48,114 nucleotides of DNA from a virus, in the IMG/VR virus record IMGVR_UViG_3300045988_031966; one strand, given 5' to 3'. Below, piece after piece: positions 3,273-33,418 of the stretch. The notes beneath the pieces were generated by a model. That model did no database searches. It worked only from the letters and a program-made list of their open reading frames with translations, and was not told where the DNA came from. Position 1 is the first letter of the stretch. Each line of letters starts with the position of its first letter. Made by a program: the position numbers and the translations under genes.

Positions 3273-4637
3273 ATGGATCAGAAACTGAAAACAGAACGCA
3301 GAAAACTGGCTGACTTAAAGGCAGCCGAATACAATCCACGAAAGGCACTAACCCCGGACGATGCGGAATACCAGAAAATAAAACGTAGCATTGAGGAATT
3401 CGGGTACGTTGATCCTATCATCATAAACGAAGATGGAACAATCATCGGAGGACACCAGAGAACAACGGTACTCATGGACTTAGGGTATGAGGAAGTCGAT
3501 GTCGTTGTGGTGGATCTGGACAAGCAGAGGGAAAAGGCTCTGAACATCGCACTGAATAAAATCACTGGCGAATGGGATGAGTTGAAGTTGAAAGACTTGC
3601 TGCTTGACCTTGACCTCGGAGATTTTGACATATCGCTGACAGGTTTTGAGCAGGACGACCTCACGGAACTGGTGGACAAACTCGCAGTAGAGCCGGAAGC
3701 AGTGGACGATGACTTCGATGCAGAGGAAGCATTGGAGCAGGCAACAGAACCAACTACAAAGCCGGGCGACATTTGGATACTGGGCCGGCACAGACTCATG
3801 TGTGGCGACAGCACTTCGCAGGAAGATATGGCGGTTCTGATGAATGGGGAGATTGCAGACCTTGTTGTCACGGACCCACCATACAATGTCAATTATGGCG
3901 ATAAAGCAGAAATGCTCGACGAGTACCTGCCGGGGAAAGGACACCGGAATATCAATCACATTAAAAACGACAACATGGACAACCAGAGTTTCTATGCGTT
4001 TTTACTGGCAACCTATCAGAGTGCCTATGAATTTATGAGAGCCGGAGCGGCAATCTATGTATTCCATGCAGAGAGCACCGGGCATATTTTCAGACAAGCA
4101 TTCCTTGATGCCGGATTGAAACTCGCCCAGTGTCTGATATGGGAAAAGAACTCTTTTGTGCTCGGCAGACAGGACTACCAGTGGCGACACGAACCATGTC
4201 TGTACGGATGGAAAGAAGGAGCCGCCCATTACTTCATCAATGACCGAACGCAGGATACGGTCATTCTGGAGGATGATATAGATTTCAGTGCCATGAAGAA
4301 AAATGACCTTGTGGCATATCTGGAAGAACTCCGCAGAAAGTATCAGAACCAGACGTCCGTCATTTATGAGAACAAGCCGACAAGGAATGACATCCACCCG
4401 ACCATGAAGCCAGTGGCACTGATTGGAAAACTTGTAACCAATTCCAGTAAGTCCGGGTGGAATGTTCTGGATTTATTCGGAGGCAGCGGCAGCACCCTCA
4501 TGGCCGCAGAGCAACTGGGAAGGACAGCCTTCATCATGGAACTGGATGAACGGTTCTGTGATGTGATTGTAAAGCGGTGGGAAGAATACACCGGGCAGCA
4601 GGCTGTCAGAATCCCGGCATCCGAGGTAGGATTGTAG
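3273..4637 (+). CDS. ParB-like nuclease domain fused to an N6A/N4C DNA methyltransferase
   Basis: N-terminal ParB-type box (YNPR ... IIGGHQR). Catalytic TDPPYNV is followed near the C-terminus by the AdoMet motif LDLFGGSGSTLMAAEQLGR. Confidence 0.85.
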   Translation: MDQKLKTERRKLADLKAAEYNPRKALTPDDAEYQKIKRSIEEFGYVDPIIINEDGTIIGGHQRTTVLMDLGYEEVDVVVVDLDKQREKALNIALNKITGEWDELKLKDLLLDLDLGDFDISLTGFEQDDLTELVDKLAVEPEAVDDDFDAEEALEQATEPTTKPGDIWILGRHRLMCGDSTSQEDMAVLMNGEIADLVVTDPPYNVNYGDKAEMLDEYLPGKGHRNINHIKNDNMDNQSFYAFLLATYQSAYEFMRAGAAIYVFHAESTGHIFRQAFLDAGLKLAQCLIWEKNSFVLGRQDYQWRHEPCLYGWKEGAAHYFINDRTQDTVILEDDIDFSAMKKNDLVAYLEELRRKYQNQTSVIYENKPTRNDIHPTMKPVALIGKLVTNSSKSGWNVLDLFGGSGSTLMAAEQLGRTAFIMELDERFCDVIVKRWEEYTGQQAVRIPASEVGL

Positions 4638-24683: not shown

Positions 24684-25235
24684 ATGGCAGGAGTATTCAG
24701 AGAAGCGGTGCTGACCACCAAAGGAATTGCCCTGCTCGCCAAAGCACAGGCAGGGGAATGCACCATCGATCTCACAAAAGCCGCAGCGGGAAACGGATCG
24801 TATTCCGAAGGCGAAGCACTGATGGGAAGAACCGCACTGAAAGCACAGAAGCAGGAATTTAAACTCAGTGCAGTTACCAGACAGAACAACACTAATGTCT
24901 ATGTAAAAATTGTGATGAGCAATAAGCAGGACACAGGGAATCTGGAACATGGCTACTATGTGAAGGAGGTCGGCATTTTCGCTAACGATCCGGACGAAGG
25001 GGAAATTCTCTATGCAATCGCAGTAGCAATCACGGATCAGTGGGATTATATGCCCGCATACAACAACCTGCTCCCATCTACGATCACGGTCAACTTCCTT
25101 ACAGAGGTATCGAATGCAAGCGAGGTAACCATCGAAGCACCGAACCAGTATTTTTTGTATGACCAAGTGACCGGAGGAAAATACACACTGGGAGTGGAAA
25201 ACGGATTACTTTATTTCGAGGAGGTAGAAGGATAA
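24684..25235 (+). CDS. Tail fibre proximal (baseplate-attachment) protein, tail-collar N-terminal-domain-like
   Basis: 183 aa. N-terminus VLTTKGIALLAKAQAGECTIDLTKAAAGNGSY resembles the N-terminal domain of P2 gpH-type fibres. Its stop overlaps the next start (TAATG). Confidence 0.5.
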   Translation: MAGVFREAVLTTKGIALLAKAQAGECTIDLTKAAAGNGSYSEGEALMGRTALKAQKQEFKLSAVTRQNNTNVYVKIVMSNKQDTGNLEHGYYVKEVGIFANDPDEGEILYAIAVAITDQWDYMPAYNNLLPSTITVNFLTEVSNASEVTIEAPNQYFLYDQVTGGKYTLGVENGLLYFEEVEG

Positions 25236-26497
25236 TGGGAAAGACATTCATCGCAGACAAGGAAACATTGGACAAGGTTTATAACATTCTGGCAGTGGAT
25301 GAAGTGTATGGATTTATCGAACACATGAACATCTTAAGTCCGACAGAGAGGATTGAGTATATCGGAGCAAACAAAGCTTATACTCCATTGACAGTTGACA
25401 AGGTGACCGGAGTGCCAAACTATGGATCATGGGCAAACTTCCCGGTACTTGTTGGTAATAAACCATGGATGGTGCGTTCAGATGGAACACCGGATTACAG
25501 ACTGGATGAAAATGACTACACGAAGAAAGAAGATGGAACTGCCTCCGATGTGGCGAACACAAAATATAATGGCGGTGCATTCGCATGGATTCCGAAGATT
25601 TACAAGCAGGAATATATGCTCGGCGATGACCGTGTCGTTAAATTCTCCATGACAAAGAGAGATGGGTTCGAAGCGGTTGGTTTTATTGACCCGGATAACA
25701 AGGAATTGGAAGGCGTGTGGATTCCAATGTTCTACGGTTCGATTGTGGAAGAAAAAATGAAATCTATTTCCGGGGTGCAGCCTTGCTATAATACAGCAAC
25801 TGCAGCAGAGAAAACAGCTATTGACGCATTCGGAACAAGGGCGAAATTTTTCGGTGGAGCAATCGTCCAGACGCTTACCGACCTTTTAATCATGTTCGGA
25901 AAAAGCACGAACTCGCAGGCGGTATATGGAAGCGGAAATTCAAGTGGATATGATGAAAGTTTGAAGCCTACATACGGAGTAAAACAGAATGCTGTTGTTA
26001 AGGGCGGGCAGTTTTATGGCACAAGCGATGCAAAATCTCTCAATAAGATTTTACATTCCATTGTGCTTGGCAGTTATCAGCAGTGGATGCGTGATCCATA
26101 TACGCTGCTCGTAAATGGAAGATACAAGGTCAGTAAAAACTATGAGTACGACTTGACTGGAGCGAAGTACCAAGATACAGGTATCAGTTTGCCAAAGATT
26201 ATGAATGAAACTGGAGATGAACAAAAAACAGGCGTATTTTACCCACACAAGTACCAGACAGTACCGGGATTTGGAACAGTGCCAGTACATCCATGTAAGG
26301 GAAGTACCACAACTGGCGGCTGTGACGGATTATGGCAGAATGTTGAGATTACGGCTGTCGCCCTTCGGTTCGGCAGATGCGACGATGGTACGAATGATGG
26401 TCTGCGTGCCTTGCATGTGGGCGGTTCCGCTACGGGTGCCTACTGGAGCATCGGTGTCGCCATTCTTCTCCTCCCACCTGTCGGTGTTGCAGCGTAA
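25235..26497 (+). CDS. Distal tail fibre / receptor-binding protein; DGR target gene carrying the VR
   Basis: 420 aa. The last ~48 codons contain the 109-bp VR. All VR/TR differences change codon positions 1-2. Confidence 0.85.
   Translation: MGKTFIADKETLDKVYNILAVDEVYGFIEHMNILSPTERIEYIGANKAYTPLTVDKVTGVPNYGSWANFPVLVGNKPWMVRSDGTPDYRLDENDYTKKEDGTASDVANTKYNGGAFAWIPKIYKQEYMLGDDRVVKFSMTKRDGFEAVGFIDPDNKELEGVWIPMFYGSIVEEKMKSISGVQPCYNTATAAEKTAIDAFGTRAKFFGGAIVQTLTDLLIMFGKSTNSQAVYGSGNSSGYDESLKPTYGVKQNAVVKGGQFYGTSDAKSLNKILHSIVLGSYQQWMRDPYTLLVNGRYKVSKNYEYDLTGAKYQDTGISLPKIMNETGDEQKTGVFYPHKYQTVPGFGTVPVHPCKGSTTTGGCDGLWQNVEITAVALRFGRCDDGTNDGLRALHVGGSATGAYWSIGVAILLLPPVGVAA
26353..26461 (+). repeat. DGR variable repeat (VR)
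   Basis: 109 bp, 96/109 identical to 26597..26705. 12 of the 13 mismatches lie opposite TR adenines. Confidence 0.9.
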
Positions 26498-26517
26498 GCA
26501 AGACACCGTTTAGGGGG

Positions 26518-26547
26518 TCTGGGGGTTGCGAAGCAAATTCCCCCAGA
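26518..26547 (+). other. GC-rich hairpin/cruciform downstream of VR
   Basis: tctggggg (26518..26525) pairs with cccccaga (26540..26547). An inner ttgc/gcaa stem is also possible. No T-run follows. Confidence 0.4.
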
Positions 26548-26596
26548 GAGAACTTCGGACAATAAAATATTAGGGGAGAGGGTCGGCGTCATCTCG

Positions 26597-26705
26597 GGCT
26601 GTCGCCCTTCGGTTCGGCAGATGCAACAATGGTACGAATGATGGTCTGCGTTACTTGAATGTGAACAATTCCGCTACGAATGCCAACTGGAACATCGGTG
26701 TCGCC
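26597..26705 (+). repeat. DGR template repeat (TR)
   Basis: Non-coding copy 100 bp after the target stop. It has 25 adenines, many in AAC/AAT codons when read in the VR frame. The RT gene lies 196 bp downstream. Confidence 0.9.
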
Positions 26706-26901
26706 TTATTCTATCCTTTATGGAATATAAACCTAAAGCCGACTCTCTTCATTTACACCGCTGACGGTTGAAACACCGTGTACCCGCCATTACTGGTATG
26801 GGGAGTGGAAATGAATCTGACACAGGACGCATGGTAAAGCGGTCGCACCTGCCATGCGTAGGAGATAGAAGAAAAAATATCTTATAGGAGTACTCAGCAG
26901 A

Positions 26902-28125
26902 ATGAGAAAACAAAAGCAAGACATTCTTCTGCGTAAAGAACCGCAAGGGCATAAAGAGTACAAATATCTGTATCGTGAAATGCTGAAGGATGATGTGATC
27001 CGGAAAGCATATAAGAAGTTACGCAAAGGAAAAACCAAAAGAAAAGAGATACAGTACATCGATGCACATTTTGATGAGGAAGTGCAGAAGATGCACGACA
27101 TGATCTTAAACACCAAGCCAGAGGGCGTGGAAGTACCGCACCCGGAACTGGCATACAAACCCCGGAAAAGAACTCCGAAGATTATCGTGGAACATGGGAA
27201 AAGACGGAAAATCTATATGCCGGAAATTCATGAACAATGGCTACACCACATCATAGTGCTTATTTCAGAGCCGATTATAACAGCCACAGCCTATCCGTAT
27301 TCCTGTGGATCGTTCCCAAAGCGTGGAGCACACTACGGAAAACGACAGATAGAGAGGTGGCTCTTACATGATCCTAAAGGCACAAGGTGTTTTGCCAAAA
27401 TGGATATCCGGCATTTTTATGACAGCATCCGGCTAAAAATTCTTATGATGGAGCTGCGGATTAGAATCAAAGATGAATGGTTTTTATACATTATCGAATT
27501 GTGCCTGCATGGATTTGATAAAGGAATTCCTCTCGGGTTTTATATCAGTCAGTGGTTAGCAAATTATCTGTTAGAGCCATTGGACAGGCTGATCACAGAA
27601 GGACTGGGTCTACCGAAGTTACAGAGATACATGGATGACATCGTCATATTCGCAAGTAACAAGAAAGTCCTTCATGCAGCCATTATAAGAATAAAACAAC
27701 TTCTCGGTCAGCGTTTCAGATTGAAACTGAAGAATAATTACCAAGTGTGCAAATTTTATTTTGTAAAAGGTAAAAGAAGAATCGGCAGGGCGTTGGATTT
27801 TATGGGGTTTGTATTTTACAGAACCAGAACCGTCATCAGAAAGAGCATCATGTTGTCAGCCACCAGACTGGCGGCAAAGATGCATCGAGCAAAAGAAGAA
27901 AATCGTGGATACTTCCACAGACACATCGAAGCCATGCTCTCCTACATGGGATGGTTTACCTGCACAGACACCTATGGATGTTATGAGAGCAGGATAAAAC
28001 CATTCATCAAGGTGGGAAGGCTTAAGAAAATTATATCCAAATTAAAAAGGAGGCAGAACCATGAAGCAGTGGACAGAGGAACGATGTTCCGAAAAACCGC
28101 AGGAGTTACAGCTTATTGCCAGTGA
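26902..28125 (+). CDS. DGR-type reverse transcriptase
   Basis: 407 aa. RT motifs SCGSFPKRG, KMDIRHFYDSI, IPLGFYISQWLANYLL (LGxxxSQ signature), RYMDDIVIF (YxDD) and LDFMGFVF are present. Confidence 0.9.
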   Translation: MRKQKQDILLRKEPQGHKEYKYLYREMLKDDVIRKAYKKLRKGKTKRKEIQYIDAHFDEEVQKMHDMILNTKPEGVEVPHPELAYKPRKRTPKIIVEHGKRRKIYMPEIHEQWLHHIIVLISEPIITATAYPYSCGSFPKRGAHYGKRQIERWLLHDPKGTRCFAKMDIRHFYDSIRLKILMMELRIRIKDEWFLYIIELCLHGFDKGIPLGFYISQWLANYLLEPLDRLITEGLGLPKLQRYMDDIVIFASNKKVLHAAIIRIKQLLGQRFRLKLKNNYQVCKFYFVKGKRRIGRALDFMGFVFYRTRTVIRKSIMLSATRLAAKMHRAKEENRGYFHRHIEAMLSYMGWFTCTDTYGCYESRIKPFIKVGRLKKIISKLKRRQNHEAVDRGTMFRKTAGVTAYCQ

Positions 28126-28330
28126 CATCTATATGGAAAGGAAGAACATCAAAGAAGTGAAACATCCGGCAGACGAAGTCACCGGAACGGAGGCTTATAC
28201 GGAATGGGTATGCGAAAGCCGAGAAATCAGTGTCAGCGAGTATGAGATGTTGAAATCCATTGAAGCAATTGACACCACGAAGGCGATCGATGCGTACACA
28301 TTACAACTGATCGAGGAGGGATTATTATAA
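28061..28330 (+). CDS. Hypothetical protein (XkdW-like position)
   Basis: 89 aa with strong RBS aaaaggaggcagaaccATG. It overlaps the RT 3' end by 65 nt and precedes the XkdX-like gene. Confidence 0.55.
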   Translation: MKQWTEERCSEKPQELQLIASDIYMERKNIKEVKHPADEVTGTEAYTEWVCESREISVSEYEMLKSIEAIDTTKAIDAYTLQLIEEGLL

Positions 28331-28476
28331 TGAGAGCACTGGTAAATAGCATCAAAAGACTGTATGAATCGGGCCGGCTGACCAAAGAGCAGGTCGCAGA
28401 AAGAGTCGTGAAGGGAACGCTTGATGAAACAGAATACGAGGAAATCACAGGGGAAACCTACGCAGCAGAAGAATAA
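28330..28476 (+). CDS. XkdX-family small phage protein
   Basis: 48 aa, below the ORF-track cut-off. ATG overlaps the upstream stop. MRALVNSIKRLYESGRLTKEQVAERVVKGTLDETEYEEITGETY fits the remembered XkdX pattern. Confidence 0.6.
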   Translation: MRALVNSIKRLYESGRLTKEQVAERVVKGTLDETEYEEITGETYAAEE

Positions 28477-29466: not shown

Positions 29467-30891
29467 ATGGCACTCACAGAAAAACAAAAGAAATTTATAC
29501 AGGACATCGCAGGCTATGTTCAGAAATATGCCAAAGCATACGGAATCAAGGTTCATAGTCCAATCATCGCACAGGCAATCCTTGAAAGCGGATGGGGCGA
29601 AAGCCGACTGGCAGCACAGTACCATAATTACTTCGGACTTAAGTGCGGAACGAAGTGGACTGGCAAAAGTGTGAACATGACCACACGGGAAGAATATGAA
29701 CCGGGAACACTTACCACGATTAAAGATAATTTTCGGGTATATGACGACATGGAGGAAGGAGTAAAGGGGTACTTTGAGTTTATCCAGTTGGCAAGATACC
29801 ACAACCTCAGAGGAATCACGGACCCCAAAACTTATCTCCAAACCATCAAGAACGATGGCTACGCTACAAGCAGCACATATGTGGAGAACACGATGAAACT
29901 GGTAACCCAGTACAATCTTACAAAATACGACAGAAAACAGGAGGAAACTGCCATGGGAAGAACAGCACAGGATGTATTAAACATTATGAGGGGATGGCTT
30001 GGATTTAGTGAAGCCAACGGAAAATTTAAGCAGATTATAGATTTATACAACAGCGTGAAGCCATTACCGAGAGGTTATGAAGTAAAGTACAGTGACGAGT
30101 GGTGCGATACCTGTGTATCGGCGGCGGGAATCGCTGCAGGATGCAGTGATTTAATCGGGAGAGAATGTGGGTGTGAACAGCATGTAAAGATTTTTCAGTC
30201 CATGGGAATCTGGATTGAGGATGGAACAATCACTCCAATTCCGGGCGACATCATCCTCTACAACTGGGATGACGGAACACAGCCAAACGATGGATATAGT
30301 GATCACATCGGATATGTGGAGAATGTTTCCGGTGGAAAGATTACCTGCATGGAAGGAAACAAGGGAGAAGCTGTCGCAAGACGTGTTCTCTCTGTCGGCA
30401 GTGGAAATATCAGAGGATATGCCCGCCCGAAATATGCTTCTGGCGGTTCATCGAAGCCATCAAAATCCGTCACGGAAGTAGCCAAGGAAGTCCTTGCCGG
30501 GAAGTGGGACAATGGAGATGACCGCAGAAACCGACTGACTGCCGCAGGCTACAATTACAATGAGGTGCAGGCAGAAGTAAACAGACTGGCAAGCGGCGGA
30601 TCATCTGCTCCGAAAAAGAGCGTGGATGAAATTGCAAAAGAAGTCATCGCAGGCAAGTGGGGAAATGGAGATGACCGTAAAAACCGCCTTGTCGCCGCCG
30701 GATATGATTATAATGCAGTTCAGAGAGCTGTCAACGCAAAACTCAGCGGATCAGCAGGAAAGTCCGTGACGCAGGTGGCAAAAGAAGTCATCGCCGGAAA
30801 ATGGGGAAATGGAGAGGAACGCAGAAGAAAGCTGACTGCCGCAGGTTACGACTATAATGCGGTGCAGAGAAAGGTCAATGAACTTCTGTAA
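29467..30891 (+). CDS. Endolysin: glucosaminidase domain + CHAP/NlpC-like domain + 3 CW_7-type wall-binding repeats
   Basis: AQAILESGWGESRLAAQYHNYFGLK (glucosaminidase-type). DEWCDTCVS ... SDHIGYV (Cys/His peptidase-type). There are three ~45-aa repeats. Confidence 0.9.
   Translation: MALTEKQKKFIQDIAGYVQKYAKAYGIKVHSPIIAQAILESGWGESRLAAQYHNYFGLKCGTKWTGKSVNMTTREEYEPGTLTTIKDNFRVYDDMEEGVKGYFEFIQLARYHNLRGITDPKTYLQTIKNDGYATSSTYVENTMKLVTQYNLTKYDRKQEETAMGRTAQDVLNIMRGWLGFSEANGKFKQIIDLYNSVKPLPRGYEVKYSDEWCDTCVSAAGIAAGCSDLIGRECGCEQHVKIFQSMGIWIEDGTITPIPGDIILYNWDDGTQPNDGYSDHIGYVENVSGGKITCMEGNKGEAVARRVLSVGSGNIRGYARPKYASGGSSKPSKSVTEVAKEVLAGKWDNGDDRRNRLTAAGYNYNEVQAEVNRLASGGSSAPKKSVDEIAKEVIAGKWGNGDDRKNRLVAAGYDYNAVQRAVNAKLSGSAGKSVTQVAKEVIAGKWGNGEERRRKLTAAGYDYNAVQRKVNELL
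30463..30888 (+). repeat. Three tandem CW_7-like coding repeats within the endolysin
   Basis: Repeat unit KSVtEVAKEViAGKWGNGDDRrNRLtAAGYdYNaVQ occurs three times in tandem. Confidence 0.8.
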
Positions 30892-32220: not shown

Positions 32221-33418
32221 ATTTTTGTTACATTGTTATCCCGTTTTATAAGAAAAAGTTATTGAAAAACATAACCCATTTACCGATAATAATATGGTAA
32301 CAAAAGCAAAAGGAGGCGGCGATAATGGCAAGAAGATTCAAGCAGTTAACCAAAGCCGACAGACTGAAAATAGAAGCACTGGACAAGGCAGGACGCAAGG
32401 TAAAAGAGATCGCAGAACAGATCGGAGTACACCAGAGCACCATCTACCGGGAACTTAAGAGGGGCAGATACATCCACACCAATTCCGATCTGACAGAGGA
32501 GGAACGATACTCCCCCGACATCGCACACGAAAAGTACCAAGAGAACCTACGGGCAAAAGGACCCGACCTCAAAATAGGGAACGACCAATCACTGGCAGAT
32601 TTTATCGAAGATAAAATGGTAAACGATGACTTCTCGGTCGGAGCGGTACTTGGATACATAGAGCAACAGGGATTAGAATTTTCAGTAACAATAACAAGGC
32701 AGACCTTATACAGATACATAGACCTCGGACTTTTTCTGAACCTTACGAACAAAGATCTGCCAATCAAGGGCAACCGAAAGAAGAAAAAGAAAACCGTGAG
32801 AAAAACGCAGGCAAGGGCAGCCGCAGGCGACAGCATAGAGAAACGACCGGAGGAGATCGACACCAGAGAAGAATTCGGACACTGGGAGATGGATACTGTG
32901 ATCGGCAAGAAGGGAGAATCAAAGCACAGCCTCCTGGTACTTACCGAAAGAAAGACAAGGGAAGAATTGATGTTTCTCCTTATGGAGCATACCACAGAGC
33001 AGGTGGTGTCCTGCATCAATAGACTGGAAGAACAGTGGGGCGAAAAATTCAACCGGATATTTAAAACAATCACCGTGGATAACGGAACGGAATTCAGCGA
33101 CTGCGATGGACTGCAAAAGAGCATCCTGCAGGACGGAGAAAACAGAACCAAGATATATTACTGCCACCCATACTCAAGCTACGAGCGGGGCAGCAACGAG
33201 AACCAGAACAAACTGGTACGCAGGAAAGTACCGAAGGGAACAAACTTCGATGATCGCACAGAGGACGACATCAAAGAGGTGGAAAACTGGATAAACAACT
33301 ACCCGAGATTATTATTCGGATGGGAAACAGCACAAATGCAGTTTGACAAAGAACTGGCACTGATTGCATAATAAAAAAGACCAAAAACAGGGACAGGGGG
33401 GATACTATGCACAAAAAT
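32221..33418 (+). mobile_element. IS30-family element (boundaries tentative)
   Basis: Candidate imperfect inverted repeats atttttgttacattgttatccc (32221..32242) and gggatactatgcacaaaaat (33399..33418), about 18 matched positions with 2 gaps. Total 1198 bp with a single DDE transposase ORF. Confidence 0.45.
32325..33371 (+). CDS. IS30-family DDE transposase
   Basis: 348 aa. N-terminal HTH LTKADRLKIEALDKAGRKVKEIAEQIGVHQSTIYRELKRG is typical of IS30 transposases. The C-terminal catalytic core includes HWEMDTV ... TVDNGTEF ... RGSNEN. Confidence 0.88.
   Translation: MARRFKQLTKADRLKIEALDKAGRKVKEIAEQIGVHQSTIYRELKRGRYIHTNSDLTEEERYSPDIAHEKYQENLRAKGPDLKIGNDQSLADFIEDKMVNDDFSVGAVLGYIEQQGLEFSVTITRQTLYRYIDLGLFLNLTNKDLPIKGNRKKKKKTVRKTQARAAAGDSIEKRPEEIDTREEFGHWEMDTVIGKKGESKHSLLVLTERKTREELMFLLMEHTTEQVVSCINRLEEQWGEKFNRIFKTITVDNGTEFSDCDGLQKSILQDGENRTKIYYCHPYSSYERGSNENQNKLVRRKVPKGTNFDDRTEDDIKEVENWINNYPRLLFGWETAQMQFDKELALIA

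Follow-up and report, generated by a model that had tools for sequence, protein, structure and literature searches.

The viral genome record IMGVR_UViG_3300045988_031966 of IMG/VR, a stretch of 48,114 nucleotides that is referred to below as the window, carries, with a probability that we put at a little over nine in ten, a genuine and functional-looking diversity-generating retroelement (DGR) that is aimed at the tip of a tail fibre and is of the accessory-less type found in Faecalibacterium phage FP_Epona (hereafter Epona). DGRs number in the tens of thousands, and gut-phage DGRs acting on tail fibres are common. The element in question comprises a variable repeat (VR) at the 3' end of the gene for its target, a distal tail-fibre or receptor-binding protein of 420 aa (25235..26497), a non-coding template repeat (TR), and a gene for a DGR reverse transcriptase (RT) of 407 aa (26902..28125), which starts 196 nt after the TR; these and the other features of the cassette and its flanking genes lie on the + strand unless stated otherwise. 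The two reading frames, the TR-RT distance and the RT motifs quoted in a preliminary description of the window are all present. Judging from the comparison of related sequences, the DGR is probably active, or was recently active, in its lineage.

Adenine-specific mismatches between the repeats

The VR (26353..26461) and the TR (26597..26705) form the sole long direct repeat that a repeat finder returned between 24500 and 29000: two copies of 109 nt, spaced by 244 nt and 88% identical. Base-by-base comparison confirms the coordinates, offset and mismatch count of the preliminary description, there being 13 mismatches, 12 of which stand at TR adenines (nine A>G, two A>C, and one A>T), with 12 of the 25 TR adenines substituted in the VR. 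The probability that at least 12 of 13 mismatches would fall on the 25 adenine sites among 109 positions is 1.9e-8 (hypergeometric), and the TR pattern with its adenines replaced by N occurs in the window only as the VR and TR copies themselves, with 0 occurrences expected by chance. In the frame of the coding sequence 25235-26497, all 13 mismatches occupy positions 1-2 of AAC, AAT, or TAC codons and alter nine residues, as had been claimed. Codon positions 1-2 hold 24 of the 25 TR adenines, 18 of the 25 belong to nine AAY codons, and the TR has the capacity for at most 1.1e15 variants as DNA and 2.0e14 as protein. The VR itself encodes residues 374-409 of the target, and the ten highest-entropy columns of the target family lie inside it.

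The thirteenth mismatch is a T>G change at 26408/26652, in the same TAC codon as one of the A>C changes. At the T of the equivalent TAC codon, the related loci L005 and L082 have independently acquired the T>G change seen in the window, and a further T>G change, which turns CTT into CGT near the 5' end of the TR, is recurrent in 13 loci and may show either where conversion tracts usually stop on the 5' side or a residue under selection; the non-adenine differences between VR and TR are non-random.

Downstream of the last mutable adenine, the VR ends in a GC-rich stretch, TCGGTGTCGCC (26451..26461), resembling an initiation of mutagenic homing (IMH) site. These 11 nt are identical to the TR copy at 26695-26705, and the flanks diverge right after them. 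In this respect the window is unlike the Bordetella phage BPP-1, which has distinct IMH and IMH* sequences; some DGRs with identical IMH and IMH* are noted by Wu et al. (PMC5758913).

Variation among relatives

The preliminary description had predicted that variation would be confined to positions templated by TR adenines, and this was borne out among 161 RT-related loci that were collected from IMG/VR and from genomes and whose RTs range from 94% down to about 26% identity. Nearly all RT relatives with enough upstream DNA adjoin a repeat pair whose mismatches fall almost solely at adenines of the RT-proximal copy, and the adenine-specific spectrum is seen in more than 100 independent loci. 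When 56 IMG/VR loci are pooled, 672 of 1363 TR-adenine sites (49%) are substituted in the VR, as against 30 of 4796 non-adenine sites (0.6%). The same contrast can be followed at close range in a sister lineage represented by seven contigs from different metagenomes (L002-L012): their TRs are 100% identical and their VRs comprise six distinct sequences, which vary at 27 columns, 24 of these being TR adenines (of 25), while the intervening DNA between VR and TR is 99-100% identical and the 300 nt upstream of the VR are 89-100% identical. Among further close relatives, with RTs of 91-94% identity (L163, L164, L001, and L018), there are 14, 11, 15, and 8 substitutions at adenines, respectively, and a single non-adenine substitution, in L018.

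The nearest relative, L162, comes from another sample (ERR13962723) and was found by way of its RT protein, which is 98% identical to that of the window (99.3% in DNA); its TR, spacer, and RT-4 RNA (described below) are 100% identical to those of the window. The contig ends inside the VR, its positions 1-20 corresponding to window 26448-26467, and of the 14 VR nucleotides that can be seen, five are unlike those of the window, two of them at TR adenines, with the reservation that sequence at a contig end may be unreliable. The VR tail of L162 reads TCGGGGCTGCC, as in the lineage of L001, while its own TR tail reads TCGGTGTCGCC, the two differing at three positions, which suggests that conversion tracts can reach the very last TR nucleotide or else that the fibre genes recombine. 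Since an identical TR here accompanies a different VR tail, recent turnover is indicated in the lineage of the window.

The imprint of this variation is also visible in the proteins. In an alignment of 90 target homologues (69-89% identical), the ten top-entropy columns reach 2.9-3.5 bits with 10-15 residue types each, and they coincide with the positions of AAY (Asn) codons in the TRs, nine of which are Asn in the TR of the window; the tenth column is residue 381, for which most relatives' TRs have AAT. Residue 381 is the most variable position of the family (3.5 bits), its usual template codon AAT being stop-proof; in the window, the VR codon for this residue (26375-26377) still reads AGA.

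The reverse transcriptase

The ORF (open reading frame) of the RT is intact, with a catalytic YMDD motif, and a Pfam search identifies RVT_1 only. Sequence and structure agree with the preliminary description that the enzyme is of the DGR type. By sequence, the best match in the PDB is 8ub7, the Bordetella DGR RT (bRT), with E 2.3e-17; matches below 8ub7 are a group II intron RT (E 3.3e-10), the RNA-directed DNA polymerase 8bgj, RT domains of group II maturases ('retron-type'), and Drt3a. By fold, an AlphaFold model of the RT (predicted local distance difference test, pLDDT, 80) again matches 8ub7_A best, an entry named 'Diversity-generating retroelement ribonucleoprotein reverse transcriptase', with E 4.5e-17, a target-normalised TM-score (TM) of 0.83, and a root-mean-square deviation of 3.6 Å, as compared with TM 0.61 for GsI-IIC, the RT of a group II intron; DRT and retron RTs score lower still, with retron RTs and DRT2/DRT9 ranking below bRT and the group II intron RTs. 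The motif LGFYISQ aligns to IGSLTSQ of bRT, both conforming to [I/V/L]GxxxSQ, whereas a group II RT has SP at that place. In addition, R102 and L211 align to R74 and I181 of bRT, two residues that promote adenine mutagenesis in the latter.

Conversely, the window lacks the attributes of the other RT classes. A group II intron would call for SP instead of SQ, an intron RNA, and a family score above the cut-off; the NCBIfam score for group II (TIGR04416) is 91 bits against a curated cut-off of 300, and an Rfam scan yields RT-4 only, with neither group II intron nor retron RNA. For retron and DRT enzymes the family scores are likewise under their cut-offs (retron St85, 42 vs 235 bits; Drt3a, 59 vs 200 bits).

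The target protein

Within PHROG 5302, 'tail protein', the target corresponds to the C-terminal three quarters (7.5e-92), and it is a homologue of the 'BPP-1-like major tropism determinant' of Epona. Directly upstream lies the gene for a proximal tail-fibre protein of 183 aa (24684..25235), which carries a tail-collar fibre N-terminal domain (Pfam PF12571 Phage_tail_fib, 1.8e-10), matches PHROG 7037 tail fiber at 1e-49, and also matches the N-terminus of PHROG 5302 (positions 2-134). As the N-terminus of PHROG 5302 is thus found in the 183-aa protein and the rest in the target, the target forms the distal portion of a fibre that two genes encode. In the fibre gene pair 24684-25235/25235-26497, the stop codon overlaps the start codon (TAATG), the split is kept in Epona, and the two products jointly span PHROG 5302, which elsewhere is one single protein.

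No sequence-level match of the target exists in the PDB, and its fold was therefore considered through an AF2 (AlphaFold) model (pLDDT 73.8, predicted TM-score 0.81). The only significant fold matches in the PDB are to TaqVP, a DGR variable protein of Thermus aquaticus (E 1e-6 to 2e-5), and variants of Bordetella Mtd rank next, below significance. TaqVP (PDB 5VF4) and Mtd (1YU0-4) both display their VR residues on a C-terminal C-type-lectin fold and share 13-14% sequence identity with the target. Among predicted viral structures (BFVD), the target resembles tail-collar fibre proteins (TM up to 0.80), with further matches that are FGE/sulfatase-modifying-factor-like or 'Treponema variable protein' (TvpA)-like. 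These models make it likely, without proving it, that the tip of the target adopts a C-type-lectin fold, for which the preliminary description had proposed to look, and the protein would presumably bind a receptor.

RNA elements around the template repeat

The spacer between TR and RT contains the RNA motif RT-4 (Rfam RF03025) at 26754..26870, as a full-length match with 123.2 bits against a gathering threshold of 73.5 (E = 2e-22), a score as high as in relatives. Its layout comprises a 5' domain with two hairpins, a linker rich in A, a stem-loop that is long and interrupted, and a conserved tail that stays unpaired, GATAGAA (26864-26870), for which a complementary partner exists outside the motif. 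The same motif was found at the same position in 17 of the 17 related loci scanned, ending about 30 nt before the RT start codon. When the 'RT' motifs were described, only RT-10 was tied to a DGR, that of BPP-1, and the others were a matter of speculation and left unassigned (Weinberg et al. 2017, PMC5737381); the orphan motif RT-4 is the DGR spacer RNA of the present lineage. Other motifs have the same positional role in other DGR clades: RT-18 lies in the TR-RT spacer of Melainabacteria/Gastranaerophilales-type loci and of the Lachnospiraceae metagenome-assembled genome L120, RT-17 lies in that of a clade with 26-29% RT identity, and a borderline RT-4 was seen in a Butyrivibrio locus (the distant clades scanned, with RTs of 26-41% identity, include L120, L124, L126, L128, and L130 at ~3917-4011, L139, L153, and L156 at ~3881-4012, and L134 at 3887-3984). 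With RT-17, RT-18, and RT-4 all located in DGR spacers, several of the unassigned Weinberg 'RT' motifs appear to be DGR spacer RNAs.

An alignment of 61 distinct sequences, extending from 70 nt upstream of the TR into the start of the RT gene, revealed a second structured element, which we call the bracketing helix. In the consensus structure computed with RNAalifold, 26578-26587 pairs over a long range with 26738-26747, closing the TR into a loop. The 5' strand (26573..26587, with the core GAGGGTCGGC at 26578-26587) ends 9 nt before the TR, and the 3' strand (26738..26754, with the core GCCGACTCTC at 26738-26747) begins 32 nt past it. No other helix of the region covaries as strongly, the stems of RT-4 included: 95% of the cells of the alignment are paired, compensatory changes occur in nine of the ten pairs, and cells changed on both sides number 193, against 58 ± 6 in shuffled alignments, none of 500 shuffles reaching the observed score. 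Pairing drops to 32-51% when the register is slid, and a covariation score of 0.66 compares with about 0.11. Through mostly invariant flanking pairs, the helix extends to 15 bp; it is fully paired in the window. The whole DGR RNA, when folded as a single sequence, has an unexceptional energy (z = -0.76), and the evidence for RNA structure is that of covariation alone.

In position, the bracketing helix is the analogue of the avd:Sp duplex of BPP-1 ('cPRT Stop'), which terminates cDNA synthesis, and stop duplexes were reported by Handa et al. in 207 of 278 DGRs, in a survey that covered DGRs with Avd only. By this analogy, the helix may serve as a stop for cDNA synthesis. The interval from TR to stop strand is 32 nt in the window as opposed to 58 nt in BPP-1, where it includes a 31-nt stem-loop that binds Avd, and the shorter interval would fit the absence of Avd discussed below.

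Two other pairings were considered and set aside. One, proposed by RNAalifold, joins GGG (columns 65-67) to CUU upstream of the RT ribosome-binding site and shows one-sided changes only; those GGG residues are better accounted for by letting the bracketing helix continue through them. The other joins AUCGG at the 3' end of the TR to CCGAU in RT-4 (columns 206-210/376-380), overlaps a curated RT-4 stem with little covariation, and breaks in the window and in the clade of L073.

Between VR and TR, 20 nt after the target stop codon, lies a GC-rich inverted repeat, TCTGGGGG ... CCCCCAGA (26518..26547, no strand assigned), with a DNA folding energy of -11.3 kcal/mol (z = -2.4). Of 57 distinct VR-TR spacers in relatives, 52 have a perfect stem of at least 6 bp, mostly GGGGG/CCCCC, and a GC-rich inverted repeat occurs downstream of the IMH in about a third of DGRs (Wu et al., PMC5758913). 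No T-tract follows the repeat at 26518-26547, which is therefore not a canonical terminator, and a promoter and terminator scan from the target gene to the RT found neither a + strand promoter consensus nor a terminator, so that co-transcription with the tail operon is likely.

Candidate priming sites

The TR is immediately followed by a U-rich stretch and a box, TTCTATC (26709-26715), which together (26706..26715) are near-invariant in the 61 sequences and are a candidate for the template strand in a duplex or pseudoknot that would serve for priming. The box, 3 nt past the TR, is the exact complement of the near-invariant RT-4 tail GATAGAA. Tail and box are paired in 93% of cells, a share that falls to 41-64% when the register is slid; a flanking pair is C:G in 22 sequences and U:A in 16; the contiguous duplex has a median length of 8 bp, and 43 of the 49 distinct sequences reach 7 bp or more; and in most sequences no other 16-nt segment of the same RNA pairs equally well. 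In the window, the duplex runs from C26715:G26864 to U26706:A26873, if one A·G mismatch is allowed, and reaches right up to the last nucleotide of the TR, as the geometry of a template:primer duplex would require; A26870-A26873, in the tail and its A-run, would then be candidate priming nucleotides. The tail:box pairing is put forward as a hypothesis, and it would, if real, form a pseudoknot with the bracketing helix and allow the RNA to prime its own copying.

Other arrangements compete with it. A local hairpin between the box and a downstream GGAAnAUA is predicted in about 60% of sequences, half of these being no better than the within-RNA null, and represents a secondary, competing alternative. 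Just before the stop strand, A26735 and A26736 are invariant and, by analogy with the position of Sp A56, are a second candidate for the priming site.

Absence of Avd and the small downstream gene

From the target stop codon to the RT start codon there are 404 nt, the TR included, which leaves no room for an Avd gene; no Avd-type family was found among 40 small ORFs of the window with Pfam or among the proteins of the cassette with NCBIfam. Such an arrangement has precedents. In the study of Cornuault et al. (2018, PMC5883640), the genomes of Mushu and Lagaffe alone had Avd homologues and Epona had none, and in the survey of Wu et al. (2018, PMC5758913) the accessory-less 'Architecture A', which has a TR-RT core with an adjacent upstream target, as in the window, made up 29% of 372 DGRs; these authors also noted an avd-less RT lineage (Lineage 3) and proposed Avd-independent homing. 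The TR-RT core of the window likewise comes with no avd, HRDC, MSL, or CH1 gene, the small ORF after the RT being of unknown function, and its element presumably operates independently of Avd.

That small ORF (28061..28330) encodes an acidic protein of 65-89 aa, depending on the start codon, which matches PHROG 20201 of unknown function, overlaps the end of the RT, and precedes XkdX. It follows the RT directly in every context examined (the window, Epona, and L162-L170), and 113 homologues are detectable, all seemingly within the same phage family. The protein has no match to XkdW, Avd, Pfam, or the PDB, and the label 'XkdW-like' that the preliminary description had given it is unsupported by Pfam, NCBIfam, and the PDB, even at E = 1 across 37 family members; by contrast, the XkdX neighbour proposed alongside it is borne out by Pfam PF09693 (4.3e-13, at 28330..28476, outside the DGR). 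The small ORF opens with an ATG placed 65 nt inside that of the RT and has a second one, at 28133, just past the RT stop, and products of 57, 73, 74, 84, or 89 aa have been called in relatives; the overlap with the end of the RT, which is kept, suggests translational coupling. Since the homologues are confined to one phage family, linkage to the RT is inseparable from linkage to the tail module, and the gene either belongs to the tail module or encodes a DGR accessory not yet recognised as such.

Proposed mechanism and alternative explanations

The elements described above can be combined into a working model. The TR and its flanks would be transcribed, probably within the late tail operon; the long-range helix of 10-15 bp would close the TR into a loop, with the downstream RT-4 domain acting as a scaffold for RT binding; the 407-aa RT would carry out the synthesis of cDNA from the TR, misincorporating opposite adenines; and the cDNA would take the place of the VR in the gene of the distal tail fibre, at its 3' end. 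In this way, up to 15 residues (those of the nine AAY codons and six others) would be re-randomised at the receptor-binding tip, corresponding to about 2e14 proteins. A bolder version of the model would add priming by a pseudoknot between the RT-4 tail with its A-run (26864-26873) and the U-rich/TTCTATC segment, a topology unlike that of BPP-1, whose primer strand lies between the TR and the stop duplex. That the parts of this bolder version hold jointly, namely mutagenic retrohoming free of Avd, an enlarged RT and RT-4 in the positioning role of Avd, and priming by the pseudoknot, is a tentative proposal and on balance doubtful.

Several observations weigh against our reading of the element, some of which would be expected if it were a DGR in origin only and no longer worked in this genome, with VR and TR as relics of past homing. 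The exact TR, sought as a 62-mer and as a 30-mer pattern, was not found in three contig collections (viral, genome, and metagenome); the TR codon for residue 381 (26619-26621) is AGA, from which adenine mutagenesis can yield a TGA stop and which is atypical of well-designed TRs; the T>G mismatch at 26408/26652 sits off adenine; and the current activity of the window's own copy is something that we infer. On the other hand, the RT ORF is intact with YMDD and LGxxxSQ, the VR is in frame, RT-4 scores 123 bits like its relatives, the bracketing helix is fully paired, and L162, with the same TR, already has a different VR tail, in view of which we consider inactivity quite improbable. The remaining difficulties concern individual parts of the picture: the C-type-lectin assignment, for which TaqVP is the sole significant PDB fold, involves TM values of only 0.41-0.45 and a VR loop that is poorly modelled (pLDDT <50 at 380-388 and 400-420); a targeted covariation scan supports no specific priming duplex; and because bRT of BPP-1 is inactive without Avd in vitro and the window has no Avd, the BPP-1 mechanism is not transferable unchanged.

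Another reading is that the element is a genuine DGR that depends on an accessory other than Avd, for which the small acidic protein after the RT, which could be a new accessory factor, would be the prime candidate. Its gene follows the RT and overlaps its 3' end in the window, in Epona, and in L162-L170; the product has no recognisable family and is not XkdW; Cornuault et al. (PMC5883640) suggested that another small protein may replace Avd; and Wu et al. (PMC5758913) describe an acidic accessory, 'CH1', in some avd-less DGRs. Yet the slot before XkdX usually holds a small gene in tail modules of this kind, the protein is acidic, unlike Avd, a basic protein that binds nucleic acid (PMC5758913), its 113 homologues occur only in this phage family, and more distant Avd-less DGRs with compact cassettes may lack it, so that we regard such dependence as unlikely. 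An ordinary duplication or gene-conversion tract lying beside an RT of the group II intron, retron, or DRT class is effectively refuted: the weak likeness to group II, retron, Drt, and CRISPR-associated RTs in NCBIfam and PADLOC is what any RT domain would show, these matches are far below their cut-offs while bRT is best by both sequence and fold, Rfam gives RT-4 only, and neither duplication nor conversion produces an adenine-specific spectrum in more than 100 loci.

Relationship to known systems

The closest described system is the DGR of Epona, which has the same order of genes, from baseplate J, P2-I, and collar-fibre genes through the target with its 3' VR, the TR, the RT, and the small ORF to XkdX and lysis genes. 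In Epona (L081), VR and TR are 106 nt long and differ by 13 mismatches, all at adenines; RT-4 lies upstream of the RT; the target is annotated as Mtd-like; and Avd is absent, as in the window (PMC5883640). The DGR of the window belongs to this published Epona-type, accessory-less lineage, of which it is an ordinary, typical representative. Epona is also the nearest annotated phage, with about 66% nucleotide identity across the cassette, and the RT is about 69% identical to that of a prophage relative in F. prausnitzii (L092); the window phage is distinct from Epona and probably belongs at least to another species.

The preliminary description had placed the element under the BPP-1 paradigm (mtd-avd-TR-brt), and this comparison stands in part. 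As in BPP-1, transfer from TR to VR is adenine-specific and enters the C-terminus of a tail-fibre receptor-binding protein, the RT belongs to the same clade by sequence and fold match, a structured RNA occupies the TR-RT spacer, and a GC-rich inverted repeat lies downstream of the VR. Unlike BPP-1, the window has no Avd gene, its RT measures 407 aa compared with 328 aa, with the extra residues at both ends, and its spacer RNA is RT-4 in place of RT-10.

Since bRT is inactive without Avd, the mechanism of Avd-less DGRs is unsolved, and it is here that a comparison of RNA across the family is informative. The additions made by the present analysis are modest, comprising RT-4 as a DGR spacer RNA, a covarying stop-like helix in the absence of Avd, and a candidate tail:box pseudoknot, all of which are properties of a large lineage and not of the window alone. 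Together, these RNA elements provide a concrete and mutable model for Avd-independent reverse transcription, ideally to be studied in a cultivable relative such as Epona.

The phage, its genomic context, and its hosts

The window is the complete genome, of about 48 kb, of a tailed phage. Its head and packaging genes include a gpA-type terminase, a lambda-type portal, and a capsid protein, to which a tape measure is added; its tail genes include baseplate J, the P2-I protein, the tail-collar fibre domain protein, and XkdX; a holin and a CW_7 endolysin account for lysis; and the genome further encodes an HTH_38/rve protein, an SNF2 helicase, a DUF927 primase, and methylases. The nearest prophage relatives reside in Lachnospiraceae/Clostridium sp. 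(RT identity 86-87%) and not in Faecalibacterium, and related prophages are found mostly in Lachnospiraceae and other gut Clostridia, so the phage would, judging from its relatives, infect gut Clostridia, with hosts of the Lachnospiraceae type.

The HTH_38/rve gene (32325-33371) encodes a protein of 348 aa in which HTH_38 is combined with rve, an integrase core, a combination typical of IS30-like transposases. Both L162 and L164 have the gene in the corresponding place, and it may represent a phage integrase or an inserted insertion sequence (IS) element. The endolysin (29467-30891) consists of glucosaminidase and CHAP domains followed by three C-terminal CW_7 repeats, which in the translation are three near-identical units of about 40 aa. 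In several relatives, other imperfect direct repeats, with a spacing of 132-144 nt and mixed mismatches, are present downstream of the RT region (L004 and L006 at ~3480-3810, L086 at 3816-4007, and L131 at 3581-3748), and these probably correspond to the CW_7 units of the endolysin gene and not to another VR.

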